From NCBI GenBank assembly GCA_040006935.1, contig JBDTVZ010000001.1:167772-231771 (forward strand): a stretch of 64,000 nt of DNA, given 5' to 3'. The position numbers were made by a program, and so were the translations under genes. Position 1 is the stretch's first letter, and every line of letters starts with the position of its first letter. Shown piece by piece: positions 15,064 through 20,280 of this stretch. The notes beneath the pieces are model-generated. The model ran no database searches and had not been told where the DNA came from. It saw nothing but the letters and a program-made list of their open reading frames with translations. This stretch comes from Candidatus Dojkabacteria bacterium. GTDB taxonomy: Bacteria; Patescibacteriota; Dojkabacteria; J137.

Positions 15064-15122
15064 CCCCATAAAGATTAAAATCCAAATAATGGTTCAAGTT
15101 ATAAACTTGAACCAACGCGAGT
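15064..15122 (+). repeat. Palindromic junction repeat copy R1 (CCCCATAAAGATTAAAATCCAAATAAT-GGTTCAAGTT-ATA-AACTTGAACC-AACGCGAGT)
   Basis: Perfect 10-bp inverted arms GGTTCAAGTT/AACTTGAACC with a 3-nt spacer, plus conserved 5' (CCCCATAAAGATTAAAAT..CAAATAA) and 3' (AACGCGAG) flanks shared with the copy at 18536. Confidence 0.7.
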
Positions 15123-15258
15123 AATCTTCGTCGTTTCTCCCGTCGTTTTACCTGTTTTCACCTGTTATTACAGGTTGGAGATACTTACTAATAATTAGTC
15201 ATCACAGAGGACGCACAATTACTAACTATACGATTGGCAGAGTATTCCACAAGTGGGA

Positions 15259-15480
15259 TTAGATTACTTTTGATATTTTCTTCTTAGACTGCTTTATCTT
15301 AATTTCTTTAATTGGGAGTACCTTAGAGATTTTATTTAATGAGGGAAAAACTGGATTCTTAATTGAACTGTTAGGAATCTCTCTAGAGTAGTAGTTGTCA
15401 AGATTTGCACTTGAGCTTCCAACCAAGTAGGGTGCTCTAATGACCTGAATATTATTATTTACGGGTTTTATTACTAGCAT
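15259..15480 (-). CDS. Small hypothetical ORF overlapping the 3' end of the peptidase gene
   Basis: 73-aa low-complexity ORF, 26-nt overlap with the upstream gene. Coding status uncertain. Confidence 0.2.
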   Translation of the reverse strand: MLVIKPVNNNIQVIRAPYLVGSSSANLDNYYSREIPNSSIKNPVFPSLNKISKVLPIKEIKIKQSKKKISKVI

Positions 15481-16609
15481 TTTTAGTTTTAATAATAATT
15501 TTTCTCCAACTTCCTTCTAACCTCACAAGCCTTGTATTGAAATTTAGATTCCAATCTCTTACAACCATTATACGGTATTTTGCATAATTCTCACTACTAA
15601 AATGTGTACTCTCAATCAAAGCGGATTTTATCTCTATTTCAACTTCCGGGCCGGTAACTGTAAGCTGATTCTGAACAAAGTTCATGGTTGCATTTATGAC
15701 AACATCACTATAAGGTTGCTGCATAGGGGGTATATCTATTGGTGCAGGGACCTTCAAATAGTCTGTAGCATCTTTGTGACTTAGGAATAAGGCTGTAGGA
15801 TCAAATGGAATTCGCACTTCTAGCTCTTTCTCAAAGTCTAAGTGTACATCCCACATAAGTTTTTCTAATTCATCGCTAGGAACTTCAATATTTAGCCCCA
15901 AAGCTTGTGCATCTTTTCTGTTTAATGCATGTCCGTGGCTGAAAAAACTCTTATTTAATTTCTCTGCAATTGATTTGGCTTGTAATTTACCTTCGACTTC
16001 TCCCATGTGCATTTTGAGTAAAATTTCTCCAATAGTTACAGATAACGATGAAGAGCGTTTAGCAAACCCCAGAGATGAAGGTTCTACACTTTCTCCTAAT
16101 AGTTTGAAGGCAGTAGCTAAATGTGATTGCTCCGTCAGTCCAGCATCGTTTTTTGTGAAATCCAAAAATGACAAAATATCCTCATATGCAAATTGCTTCA
16201 CTGTACCATCTTTCTGCTTAACAGTTATTTGCGGGTCTATTGGACCCAAACATCCATATCGTCCCATGATTATAGAATCAGCCCCAAGTGCTAATAGAGT
16301 TGCGGCACTATAAGCTGAATGGGGAATTATTACATTTACTTTTTCAAAATTCTCTCTCAATATTGACATCATTCTCAATGACACTAGAGGGTCACCTCCA
16401 AAAGACTCTATTAGAATATCAATCTCTTTCTTCCCGGCAATTTTGATTTGTTCAACTTGATCAATTAGTTCATTAATTGCATCACCAGCCATTTGTCCTA
16501 CAGCTCCATCTCGCTGTGAAGTTACGTAGACTATTAGAGGTCTTTTTGTATTATTTTCAATTTCTTTGTATAGCTTAGATCTGTCTGAGAACATAACTAA
16601 TTTTAACAT
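15455..16609 (-). CDS. ClpP/crotonase-fold serine peptidase, SDH (serine dehydrogenase proteinase)/S49-like family
   Basis: IESFGGDPLVSLRMMSILRE...IIPHSAYSAATLLALGADSIIMGRYGCLGPIDPQ matches the SppA/SDH-type oxyanion and Ser-nucleophile region (GG..., ...SAYSAA...). 384 aa with a C-terminal extension. Confidence 0.55.
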   Translation of the reverse strand: MLKLVMFSDRSKLYKEIENNTKRPLIVYVTSQRDGAVGQMAGDAINELIDQVEQIKIAGKKEIDILIESFGGDPLVSLRMMSILRENFEKVNVIIPHSAYSAATLLALGADSIIMGRYGCLGPIDPQITVKQKDGTVKQFAYEDILSFLDFTKNDAGLTEQSHLATAFKLLGESVEPSSLGFAKRSSSLSVTIGEILLKMHMGEVEGKLQAKSIAEKLNKSFFSHGHALNRKDAQALGLNIEVPSDELEKLMWDVHLDFEKELEVRIPFDPTALFLSHKDATDYLKVPAPIDIPPMQQPYSDVVINATMNFVQNQLTVTGPEVEIEIKSALIESTHFSSENYAKYRIMVVRDWNLNFNTRLVRLEGSWRKIIIKTKNASNKTRK

Positions 16610-16617
16610 AATAAGTA

Positions 16618-16650
16618 ATAGACTTCACTTCAATGGTACTTATAGTCCGT
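16618..16650 (+). promoter_or_regulatory. C-box-like operator upstream of the controller gene
   Basis: TAGACTTCACTTCAATGGTACTTATAGTCCGTGG contains ACTTATAGTC, a near-exact half of the canonical C-protein operator (GACT-TAT-AGTC), plus an upstream GACT half-site. TATAAA lies ~8 nt before the ATG at 16685 (leaderless, as is typical for C genes). Confidence 0.45.
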
Positions 16651-16684
16651 GGTATTTTAGTCCTCTTTTTGAGAATATAAATAG

Positions 16685-16906
16685 ATGCAAAGATCAAAAA
16701 CATTAATAAAAATAGGAGAGGCTATTCGTAATTTACGCTTAGAAGCAGGTATATCACAGGAAGCGTTAGCGGAGAAAGCGGAAGTAGATAGAACTTACGT
16801 AGGCGGTGTTGAACGTGGAGAGCGTAATGTATCGATTCTTAGTTTAGAAAAACTTTGCAAGGCTTTGAACATAAGCCTACTTGATTTCTTTAAGCATATT
16901 AAATAA
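16685..16906 (+). CDS. Controller (C) protein of the R-M system, XRE-family HTH
   Basis: 73-aa HTH_XRE (IRNLRLEAGISQEALAEKAEVDRTYVGGVERGERNVS). The stop is 2 nt from the start of the endonuclease gene. Confidence 0.7.
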   Translation: MQRSKTLIKIGEAIRNLRLEAGISQEALAEKAEVDRTYVGGVERGERNVSILSLEKLCKALNISLLDFFKHIK

Positions 16907-16908
16907 TT

Positions 16909-18597: not shown

Positions 18598-18952
18598 AAG
18601 CTACAGTCCAATAGAATTTATCTCTATAATGTGGTTATCTGTAATGGATAAGTACTTGCAGTTGAGTAAACAAGGTATAAATATGCAAGCAGTAAAGTAC
18701 GAAGACATGGTTAGGAATCCTGAGAAAGCAATGAGGTTAATACTTAAAGATTTAGGTTTCTCTGATGTTGAAATTTATAAAGCATTGAAAACATTCTCAA
18801 AAGATTCCCAGGCCGGTAGTGCGCTTGCAAGAGAAAGTCTAGAAGATGTAACTTTTCCTCAGGAATCTAAGGATGAAGTTAGCAATTTGTTAGCAATGCA
18901 TAGTGAGATAAGGAATCCTAACTATACAGTTCCAGGTACAATTGAGATCTAA
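18593..18952 (+). pseudogene. Sulfotransferase gene fragment (C-terminal third only), truncated at repeat R2
   Basis: VKYEDMVRNPEKAMRLILKDLGFSD matches the conserved C-terminal region of PAPS-dependent sulfotransferases (YEDLV..PE..L..I..FLG). The N-terminal 5'-PSB (K-GTT) region is absent and the ORF starts inside the repeat. Confidence 0.5.
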
Positions 18953-18990
18953 TTTCATGTATTATTTTGAGTAATTTTTAAAATAATTTT

Positions 18991-19599
18991 ATGAAACCGC
19001 TACTATTTATTGATTTTAATGGAGTAATCTCCTATAACAACTTTTGGAATTCTATCTACTCAGAAGCACATGAATTATTTCCTAGAAGAAAAGAAATTAA
19101 TGATTTCGTATTTATTGAAAGTAAAGACTTCGTTAAGGAATGGATGGTAGGAAAGCATACTTCTGAAGAAGCACATGATTTACTTAAAGATAAATTTGGA
19201 ATAGACAAAGAGTATCTTTTTCAAATATTTCAAAAGGATGCAATAGATCTAGACGTATCTGCTTTGATAATGGGAAAATTGAAGAGATTAAAAGCAAAGT
19301 ATAAGCTAATTTTAATAACTGACAATATGGACACCTTCTCTAGGTTTACATTACCAAACAATCCAATTCTAAGCGAAGTCTTTGATGGAATCTTTATCTC
19401 TTATAATACAGGAAAACTTAAGAAAACAGATAGTGGTCGAATCTTCAAAGAAATAGCACAAATATTTGATGGTGGATTAGATAAAAGCATATTTATAGAT
19501 GATTCAAAGTCAAACTGCGATTTATTTGAAACCTTGGGCGGAAAATCTATTTGTGTGACTGGAGAAACCGAAGTACTTAAAGAGTTATCTAATCTATAA
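18991..19599 (+). CDS. HAD-superfamily hydrolase
   Basis: Motif I LFIDFNGV (DxN variant), motif II LILITDN, motif III/IV K...FIDDSKSN. Confidence 0.55.
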   Translation: MKPLLFIDFNGVISYNNFWNSIYSEAHELFPRRKEINDFVFIESKDFVKEWMVGKHTSEEAHDLLKDKFGIDKEYLFQIFQKDAIDLDVSALIMGKLKRLKAKYKLILITDNMDTFSRFTLPNNPILSEVFDGIFISYNTGKLKKTDSGRIFKEIAQIFDGGLDKSIFIDDSKSNCDLFETLGGKSICVTGETEVLKELSNL

Positions 19600-19675
19600 T
19601 AAGTTTAAGTACTCTCTTTCTAGTAATATGAAAACTTTTAATTTTATTATATTATAAAGTCTATTAGCTTCTCTA

Positions 19676-19692
19676 CCTGAACCAACGCGAGT
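19676..19692 (+). repeat. Junction repeat copy R3, right half-site only (CCTGAACCAACGCGAGT)
   Basis: 16/17 match to the right arm plus 3' flank of R1 (CTTGAACCAACGCGAGT). The left arm is absent. Sits 18 nt upstream of the next ORF. Confidence 0.5.
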
Positions 19693-19709
19693 TTTAAAAT
19701 TAATTCCTT

Positions 19710-20204
19710 ATGAATAATTTCGGTTATGTAGAATTAAAATTTACCTCTGATTCTATAAGACAATTAAGTGCAATTGTTGAGAATATTGTTAAAGAGGATC
19801 AGCTTTATTTTTCTGATGTTGTTCCAAGAATCCAAGGTGATGTAACAGATAAAGCACATCTGACTCTTTTCTATGGTCTTACAGATGCTGCTTTAAACAA
19901 TCCTGAATTAAAAACATTTGTAGATAGTCTTGAAATTGAATCTTTAGAATTAGGAGAATTAAATCTACTTGAAGGTTATCAGGGAATGTATAAAGTATTG
20001 TACATTGAGTTAAGAGATGATACTAATTATCTAAAAGGCATTTCTGAAAAGATTATACAATTTGGTGCAGATGAAGATTTAGCTAAAAGAGAATTTAAAC
20101 CCCATATTACACTTGCTTATGTAAGTAATAATTTTAAGATTCCCACAGATTATAGACTTCCAGAGACTAATCTTGGAATAGAAAGTGTAGAGGTAAGAAG
20201 TTAA
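19710..20204 (+). CDS. 2H phosphoesterase superfamily protein (LigT/2'-5' RNA ligase-like)
   Basis: Two H-x-T/S-x motifs, HLTLFYG and HITLAYV, at the characteristic spacing. 164 aa. Confidence 0.65.
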   Translation: MNNFGYVELKFTSDSIRQLSAIVENIVKEDQLYFSDVVPRIQGDVTDKAHLTLFYGLTDAALNNPELKTFVDSLEIESLELGELNLLEGYQGMYKVLYIELRDDTNYLKGISEKIIQFGADEDLAKREFKPHITLAYVSNNFKIPTDYRLPETNLGIESVEVRS

Positions 20205-20207
20205 TTT

Positions 20208-20280
20208 AAAGGTTCAAATTACCATAACACCATGCCTAAGGCAGTCGAGAAGGCAGGCGGGGCAAACTTGAACCATCGAG
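20208..20280 (+). repeat. Junction repeat copy R4 with expanded 44-nt central region (AAAGGTTCAAATT-[44 nt]-AACTTGAACC-ATCGAG)
   Basis: The same inverted arms as R1/R2, separated by a GC-richer insert (ACCATAACACCATGCCTAAGGCAGTCGAGAAGGCAGGCGGGGCA) that contains the direct repeat AAGGCAG x2. Confidence 0.6.

Follow-up and report, generated by a model that had tools for sequence, protein, structure and literature searches.

The DNA analyzed here is a 64,000-nucleotide stretch (hereafter the window) of a metagenome-assembled genome (MAG) from Candidatus Dojkabacteria, a lineage of the Candidate Phyla Radiation (CPR)/Patescibacteria. Our subject is a short palindromic element of which the window holds four copies, R1 to R4, all on the + strand. 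They span 15.06-20.28 kb and occupy four intergenic gaps, each copy lying between called genes. Two of them are intact, one consists of the right half only, and one carries a 44-nt insertion at the tip of its hairpin. An earlier note on this DNA had reported four same-orientation copies at the boundaries of unrelated gene modules and had likened them to the attC sites of integrons. The copies, their positions, their common orientation and their placement between genes were all recovered as described, whereas the comparison with attC did not hold.

The cluster begins next to a tRNA-His gene (14861-14935, - strand). Between R1 and R2 lies a block of four genes (15455-18398) that occupies both strands, namely an SDH/ClpP-like protease (15455-16609, -), a restriction-modification (R-M) control protein (C-protein) with a helix-turn-helix (16685-16906, +), a BamHI-like restriction enzyme (16909-17520, +), and a type II N4/N6 methyltransferase (17517-18398, -). 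R2 is followed by the 5'-truncated C-terminal fragment of a sulfotransferase (18593-18952, +) and a HAD hydrolase (18991-19599, +). R3 and R4 enclose a 2H phosphoesterase (19710-20204, +), and a SoFic-like Fic protein (20299-21417, -) lies beyond R4. The labels that the earlier note had given to these genes are broadly right.

R1 (15064-15121) and R2 (18536-18597) are the intact units. The hairpin of R1 (15091-15113) reads GGTTCAAGTT-ATA-AACTTGAACC, with a perfect stem of 10 bp (11 bp if the flanking T/A pair is counted) and a 3-nt loop, and is followed by a short 3' foot, AACGCGAG. The unit lies 129 nt from the 5' end of the tRNA-His gene and, relative to the protease gene on the minus strand, about 330 nt downstream. 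In R2 (hairpin 18567-18589, foot AACATGAG), one arm mismatch leaves a 9-bp stem and a 5-nt loop. Folded as single-stranded DNA, R1 reaches -10.5 kcal/mol and R2 -8.8 kcal/mol (z -7.1 and -4.5 versus shuffled sequences, respectively). The left flank that the earlier note saw in both is present over about 27 nt (CCCCATAAAGATTAAAATCCAAATAAT), giving a shared unit of about 58 nt with 88% identity.

The remaining two copies are incomplete or interrupted. R3 (19676-19691), located 18 nt upstream of the start codon of the 2H phosphoesterase gene, reads CCTGAACCAACGCGAG and thus comprises only the right arm CCTGAACC and the foot AACGCGAG; the sequence upstream of it was checked for a complementary left arm, and none is present. 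R4 (20207-20282) sits between the convergent 2H and Fic genes and consists of a left arm with one mismatch (GGTTCAAATT, 20211-20220), a right arm (AACTTGAACC, 20265-20274), and the foot ATCGAGAA. The 44-nt center that separates its arms (20221-20264), correctly described before, is about 59% G+C, and neither the window nor any of the fetched loci contains a match to it. As a whole element, R4 does not fold better than shuffled sequences (z -0.65 on the + strand and -1.47 on the - strand). The core was originally called a perfect inverted repeat, which applies to R1 but not to R2 and R4, with a mismatched arm each, nor to R3, of which only the right half exists. The foot is AAC in R1, R2, and R3.

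A 16-mer combining the right arm and the foot (CTTGAACCAACGCGAG) has, at up to three mismatches, exactly four sites in the window, all on the + strand, where shuffled sequences predict 0.21 and none of 100 shuffles reaches four. Half-site and hairpin scans of the 64 kb returned no copy beyond R1 to R4. One exact arm (13688-13697) was dismissed as a chance match because it lies inside a coding region and lacks similarity in its flanks. Target-site duplications are not visible at R1 or R2, and a search of Rfam at its gathering thresholds yielded only the two tRNAs, with nothing but noise around the repeats.

The same palindrome is widespread in other genomes. Scanning one genome per species with the pattern GGTTCAAGTTNNNRACTTGAACCA, we found it in at least 118 genome stretches, often at many loci per genome, where by our rough estimate chance would account for one or two matches. 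Among the matches listed, its hosts include Patescibacteria, Gracilibacteria, Altimarinota, Cloacimonadota, Desulfobacterota, and Nitrospirota, as well as Brocadiales (anammox Planctomycetota), Saprospiraceae, KSB1, and others; more than 10 of these listed loci belong to the Deltaproteobacteria bin Dive100_bin4.97 and a similar number to Saprospiraceae VAR_69. A 40%-GC genome (locus L119) has a tandem pair in which one copy, compared with R1 over 43 nt and with both flanks counted, shows 93% identity. L119 was also the single foreign locus returned by a metagenome scan with a subfamily-specific pattern, a scan that did not return the source genome itself. No copy was found in 2.9 million viral contigs.

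These copies are predominantly extragenic, as 135 out of 145 (about 93%) lie outside open reading frames (ORFs) of at least 120 aa, versus 28% of random positions in the same loci (the other 72% fall inside). The flanking gene pairs are convergent in 29 cases, tandem in 43, and divergent in 10, and this is the 3'-end bias typical of repetitive extragenic palindromes (REPs). The element is also oriented. Seen in the + orientation of the window, an AAA precedes the hairpin by a few bases and an A-R-C foot follows it on the 3' side; across 103 unique copies, position +3 of the foot is C in 97% and position +2 is G or A in 98%. The loops elsewhere are mostly ACA/TGT or GCA/TGC. Several loci contain one-orientation tandem arrays devoid of ORFs, with periods of 49-55 nt (L042, 4636-4817), 179 nt (L028, 4435-4815), 32 nt (L094, 3828-3883), and about 55 nt (L119, 6970-7045); new copies seem to land right beside old ones. 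Inverted doublets occur as well (L085, L091, and L125).

One specific kind of neighbor recurs beside the copies. The 135 genes adjoining copies elsewhere represent 154 Pfam families, among which only Y1_Tnp recurs; the others are as varied as AccA, NadA, sigma factors, and response regulators, and integrases are not among the recurrent families. An all-against-all clustering of 1435 ORFs from the palindrome loci gave the same picture. A HUH/Y1 protein of about 167 aa recurs in eight loci (L018, L042, L052, L066, L075, L078, L082, and L085), and the only other recurrent clusters are generic ABC-type ATPases and sensor kinases. In seven of these eight loci, palindromes that fit the exact pattern lie within about 10-70 nt of the ends of the gene, often on both sides and sometimes as arrays. 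The eighth, L052, has its exact-pattern copy about 650 nt upstream and, 40 nt upstream of the start codon, a variant with a long center (22 nt; 6656-6697). A second long-center variant is found beside the gene in L042 (around 3943-3987). Given these long-center copies, R4 is to be seen as a variant of the family and not as an attC-like design.

The 167-aa protein matches Pfam Y1_Tnp and scores 91.4 and 83.3 bits against the NCBIfam model NF047646 for REP-associated tyrosine transposases (RAYTs; cut-off 80), compared with 22 bits against the IS200 model (cut-off 55). Its closest solved structure is that of E. coli TnpAREP (PDB 4ER8). Members are 166-168 aa long, share the invariant residues H61, H63, W111, and Y132, and display the motifs NH[LI]H, FWQ (which varies in some members), YI[HE]xNP, and a WxxSSAN tail. 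At least 999 homologs with 60-80% identity are present in Patescibacteria, Nitrospirota, Brocadiales, and Thermodesulfobacteriota, many of them labeled RayT by their sources.

Since these loci had been selected by the palindrome, we also took the opposite route and picked loci L121-L128, from four lineages, by the protein (P0003, P0018, P0074, and P0088). All four lineages carry hairpins with 10-11-bp stems and 3-nt loops at no more than about 50 nt from the ends of the RAYT gene, and the arms co-vary among the lineages (GGTTCAATTT/GGTTCAGATT, GGTTCAGGTT, GGGTTCAGGTT, and GGAACTGGTT). Co-evolving hairpins around a single small Y1 gene make up what is called a REPtron. An elaborate example is the RAYT locus of a Pacebacteria genome (L125, 8506-18526; also L126), where at least 12 variant REPs (GGGAACTGGTT-TGT-AACCAGTTTC, with inverted partners AACGGGTT-ACA-AACCCGTT) fill consecutive intergenic gaps around the RAYT gene. 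The genes among them include two Fic genes, AbiEii, SLFN/AlbA, and NUDIX, and the layout looks like that of the island in our window.

Sequence, extragenic bias, RAYT association, and arm co-variation all place R1 to R4 in this family. Because the palindrome is widely distributed and extragenic, has the RAYT as its single characteristic neighbor, and is matched by co-varying hairpins at loci chosen by the protein, we are confident that R1 to R4 are REP copies of a RAYT family, that is, a known kind of genomic repeat and not a new gene-cassette system. The earlier note had also advised searching for a Y1 transposase with affinity for the hairpin, and this was the right direction, the cognate protein in other genomes being a Y1/HUH RAYT. 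The REP unit can be described as an oriented element of about 43-58 nt, in which an A/T-rich left flank is followed by a hairpin (GGTTCAAGTT-NNN-AACTTGAACC; stem 10 bp, loop 3 nt) and the 3' A-R-C foot.

At the level of motifs, the cognate RAYT family matches subclass 2.6 of the TnpAY1 proteins, an assignment that is motif-based and not derived from a phylogeny. Quentin et al. (2018; PMC6006769) characterize this subclass, which equals group 5 of Bertels, by the motifs NH[LIV]H, WQ, and YIH[QN]NP, an SS in the proximal tail, and proteins of about 179 aa, and they describe its REPs, like those of subclass 3, as having "atypical secondary structures" without GTAG. The hairpins in their Table S1 have 8-10-bp stems with 3-nt loops (TGT, TGC, GCA, and TAT), and one REP of Belliella baltica has the outer arms TGGTTCAAG...CTTGAACCA (PMC6006769). 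Our family resembles subclass 2.6 in that one small HUH/Y1 gene is directly flanked by short extragenic hairpins, in the motifs NH[LI]H, FWQ, YI[HE]xNP, and the SS tail, and in a perfect stem of 8-10 bp with a 3-nt loop (TGT/ACA/GCA/TGC) and no GT[AG]G tag; even the outer arms of the R1 type are the same as those of B. baltica (TGGTTCAAG...CTTGAACCA). It differs in its hosts, since subclass 2.6 was described mainly in Bacteroidetes, whereas the 167-aa family is found in Patescibacteria, Gracilibacteria, Brocadiales, Nitrospirota, Desulfobacterota, and Cloacimonadota. Another difference is that the REPs of the window are clustered in one orientation without a RAYT within 64 kb. Corneloup et al. 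(2021) recognized a group of REPs that are perfect palindromes and showed that each TnpAREP co-evolves with its REP (PMC8266576). We came across no published account of this hairpin in CPR bacteria, and a literature search for the arm sequences gave nothing relevant.

The REPs, BIMEs (bacterial interspersed mosaic elements), and REPINs (REP doublets forming hairpins) of gammaproteobacteria such as E. coli and Pseudomonas (subclasses 2.2 and 2.5) offer a broader comparison. They too are extragenic, biased toward the 3' side of genes, and clustered, and they share with our family the inverted doublets (L085, L091, and L125) and a cognate Y1 enzyme. In contrast, our elements lack the 5' GTAG/GTGG tag, have a 3' A-R-C foot, and are much more A/T-rich.

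By analogy with the enzymes of E. coli, Stenotrophomonas, and Marinomonas, as well as with IS200/IS605 elements, the hairpin would form on single-stranded DNA. The RAYT would then bind it, cleave, and rejoin at the A-R-C foot, and this activity may seed copies into intergenic DNA, often near existing ones. In the window, R3 is a decayed or broken half and R4 a REP with an apical insertion. Catalysis by a RAYT in the source organism is presumed on the same grounds, and a role for the host, for instance of R1 and R2 as minus-strand terminators, is conceivable.

Several points weigh against assigning R1 to R4 to this RAYT family. A tblastn search of the 64 kb gave no gene for a RAYT of the 167-aa type. 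The visible copies number only four and are crowded into 5.2 kb, in contrast to the dispersed REPs of the classical kind. The element lacks the canonical GT[AG]G tag and has the 3' A-R-C foot instead, and cleavage at that foot would be an extrapolation from related enzymes. Furthermore, the Y1/HUH transposase-like gene that the window does contain (858-1424, +; Pfam Y1_Tnp, 1.2e-8) encodes a product that shares only 20% identity with the 167-aa family, and no R1-type hairpin flanks the gene.

The product of that gene has the motifs DHVH, WQ, and YIINNP and scores 44 bits against NF047646, below the cut-off of 80. A palindrome at 1165-1192 lies within the gene and has no other good copy in the window. 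A double-foot REP inserted within tnpAREP is the reported hallmark of subclass 2.4 TnpAY1 proteins, which have a GTAG...CTAC REP of their own (PMC6006769), and the gene at 858-1424 fits a subclass-2.4-like protein of another type than the 167-aa RAYT family. With its low identity, the lack of this hairpin at its flanks, and its fit to subclass 2.4, it was rejected as the cognate enzyme of R1 to R4. It does, however, qualify the earlier statement that the window contains no integrase, which is right for the scanned ORFs but passes over a Y1/HUH transposase-like gene.

Three further candidates for the element were discarded. A remnant of a tRNA T-arm or att site does not fit, as GGTTC is all that the repeats have in common with the 3' end of tRNA-His, and they are located on the 5' side of the tRNA. 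A CRISPR-like array does not fit either, with spacings elsewhere of 32-179 nt that lack spacer regularity and a RAYT as the partner gene. Finally, a sequencing or assembly artifact is contradicted by copies internal to long contigs of many independent assemblies.

A different question is whether these REPs do more than sit between genes. The direct-orientation copies might serve as junctions at which gene modules are captured, exchanged, or deleted, a possibility that would add to their identity as REPs and not replace it. The route could be single-strand cleavage and joining by a RAYT, with a left end, cargo, and right end as in IS200/IS605, or recombination between REPs. We hold this to be unlikely, yet it has a tangible starting point in the sulfotransferase fragment. 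Residues 2-118 of the fragment align with residues 167-283 of a 284-aa protein (P0124) at 65% identity, and the fragment covers only the equivalent of residues 168-283 of this protein, which carries a Sulfotransfer_3 domain. With tblastn, the homology spans 18599-18946 and thus begins two bases past the end of R2, and the coding sequence for the N-terminal 167 aa is missing from the window. The gene is cut exactly at the 3' end of R2, which marks this end as a DNA breakpoint and gives a small, clean hint that rearrangements broke at REPs. The half REP R3 and the split REP R4 point the same way, and together with the truncated sulfotransferase they suggest breakage, deletion, or block insertion at REPs. 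Moreover, R1 and R2 form 58-nt direct repeats around a self-contained protease and R-M block, and four copies in one orientation within 5.2 of the 64 kb would have a probability of about 0.002 if placed at random (our rough estimate). In L125, REPs are interleaved with defense-type genes around the RAYT. A preprint, finally, links TnpAREP genes to diversifying gene families by their co-location, although its authors leave causality open (10.1101/2020.03.09.984088).

The evidence on the other side is considerable. No second context was found for any of the modules: exact-protein look-ups for the Fic, 2H, and BamHI-like proteins came back empty, and when the flanking methyltransferase and the sulfotransferase fragment served as queries for homologs, the source MAG alone came up. 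Only one other contig was found (L120, 2.5 kb), and it ends short of tRNA-His. Among related RAYT loci, the pairs L121/L122 and L123/L124 (few as they are) show no difference in gene content at the REP. The genes flanking REPs elsewhere are ordinary and highly diverse, so that the link between copies and variable gene content proposed in the earlier note is largely absent in other genomes. The position of R1 to R4 at module boundaries is to be expected because REPs are extragenic by definition, and there is no RAYT nearby.

IS200/IS605 elements, the model for one of these routes, are a partial parallel. Their catalytic domain is related, their hairpins are recognized on single-stranded DNA, and R1...R2 amounts to two same-strand hairpins bracketing cargo. 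In contrast, there is no tnpA or tnpB between R1 and R4, and the RAYT has the Y---NP signature of class 2 and not the Y---Q of IS200. Among the loci examined, the RAYT occurs at most once per locus, and multiple identical insertion sequence (IS) copies were not seen there.

The junction proposal is compatible with the truncated sulfotransferase, R3, R4, and the R1/R2 direct repeats, features that simple REP insertion does not explain. The cluster itself could be a REPtron neighborhood minus its RAYT, DNA brought in from a donor rich in REPs, or a place where REPs mediated shuffling. In its strongest form, REPs would be breakpoints for the capture, swap, or deletion of blocks in a defense-type island of Dojkabacteria and hence a Y1/HUH-driven functional analog of integron cassettes; this we consider a long shot, a little more doubtful still than the general idea.

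Plain intrinsic terminators whose similarity is coincidental are a very improbable explanation. Admittedly, R1 and R2 score as terminator-like on the minus strand, where a T-rich tail follows each hairpin (in R1, the hairpin is followed by TTATTTGG), and R1 lies downstream of the minus-strand protease gene. But R2 has no minus-strand gene upstream to terminate. Terminators are not conserved in sequence across phyla, whereas here even the flanks show conservation and a fixed orientation, and the hairpins are associated with RAYT genes. Acting as a terminator may be something that a REP does secondarily and not a separate origin for it.

The idea of integron attC sites, in the form of an integrase-less array of the CALIN type (clusters of attC sites lacking integron-integrases) that is recombined by an IntI encoded elsewhere, retains hardly any credibility. 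Its appeal is understandable, as the repeats share one orientation and stand between unrelated genes, the outer arms of R4 are conserved and enclose a variable center, and both kinds of element are (presumably) recognized as folded single-stranded hairpins. The details nevertheless disagree. The RYYYAAC/GTTRRRY (R''/R') cores are missing, and GTTCAAG and CTTGAAC fit neither consensus. Where attC sites measure 57-141 nt, R1 and R2 fold on both strands into 23-nt hairpins, and the folding check proposed in the earlier note revealed no bulges or extrahelical bases in them. The modules contain genes on both strands, and a block of four genes separates R1 from R2. No integrase, tyrosine recombinase, or Xer protein was detected among the window's ORFs, in a scan that covered neither the 4375-aa ORF (33086-46213) nor the unlisted ORFs at the end of the window. 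Elsewhere, the palindrome forms ORF-less tandem arrays with periods of 32-179 nt and inverted doublets, flanks RAYT genes and not intI, and is not tied to cassettes. The enzymes differ too, a HUH/Y1 nuclease versus the tyrosine recombinase IntI, and R and L boxes are lacking.

A Xer/dif-like site or a new family of recombination sites, also raised in the earlier note, fares no better. A dif site is about 28 bp long, with two 11-bp arms and a 6-8-bp center, whereas the geometry here is 10-3-10 and the partner elsewhere is a Y1/HUH protein. The fallback to a MITE (a miniature transposable element with inverted repeats) was right about a small mobile repeat, but the terminal inverted repeats of DDE-type IS elements and the target-site duplications were not seen: the sole inverted repeat is the hairpin itself, and the analogy, for REPs as non-autonomous elements, is loose. 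As for an operator for a shared regulator, such as the C-protein of the R-M system, the perfect dyad in intergenic DNA and the position of R2 in the divergent methyltransferase/sulfotransferase promoter region would suit it, but it is next to excluded by a palindrome that occurs across many phyla beside unrelated genes with no shared regulator and the RAYT as sole recurrent neighbor, that is enriched between convergent and depleted between divergent genes, and of which half and split copies persist.

With R1 to R4 regarded as REPs, the locus illustrates how same-orientation hairpin repeats between accessory genes can mimic an integron-style cassette array. The most notable side result is the conservation of the REP/RAYT pair across phyla, including CPR bacteria. 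Since the RAYTs are 60-80% identical and the hairpins nearly identical among distant phyla, this conservation, seen in the sequences, points to horizontal spread of the whole pair. For REPIN-RAYT systems, mostly vertical inheritance is usually described. The 3' A-R-C foot, in place of a 5' GTAG tag, furthermore offers a concrete substrate for biochemical work on the choice of cleavage site. The junction proposal, if true, would bring a cassette analog driven by a Y1/HUH enzyme to the ultra-small genomes of CPR bacteria.

Some observations on the surrounding genes are worth recording. In P0123, a 2846-aa protein of the representative library, 24 separate stretches match the sulfotransferase fragment at its residues 34-66, and this short segment therefore occurs elsewhere as a tandem repeat module. 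The 2H phosphoesterase weakly resembles the phage anti-CBASS protein Acb1 (PF23474, E 2e-5, below the cut-off; CBASS, cyclic oligonucleotide-based antiphage signaling system). Its gene is chromosomal and neighbors both the SoFic-like gene and the type II R-M system, with R3 and R4 as its exact brackets.

Beyond R4 and the Fic gene, the region 21510-32910 still looks accessory, with RibD_C, ParB-CE/HAD-like, DUF1801, glyoxalase-like 3-dmu-9_3-mt, and DUF1761 genes, along with a NYN nuclease, AHSA1, a PAS histidine kinase, and a cupin. It holds no further REP copies, and the REP cluster is therefore the first 5 kb of a larger variable-looking region. Next come two giant back-to-back ORFs on the + strand (33086-51661; 4375 and 1810 aa), the second of which carries Big_1 and Big_6 domains; G+C in their stretch is about 40%, compared with about 31% in the rest of the window. 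On the other side of the cluster, a small stand-alone ORF with a GIY-YIG nuclease domain (5258-5548, +; 96 aa) lies directly downstream of dnaE (1574-5137). Between the convergent genes for an EamA protein and a 423-aa membrane protein, a perfect 12-bp G+C-rich hairpin (11867-11894; GCGAGCCCTTCT-TAAA-AGAAGGGCTCGC) is probably a bidirectional terminator unrelated to the REP family.

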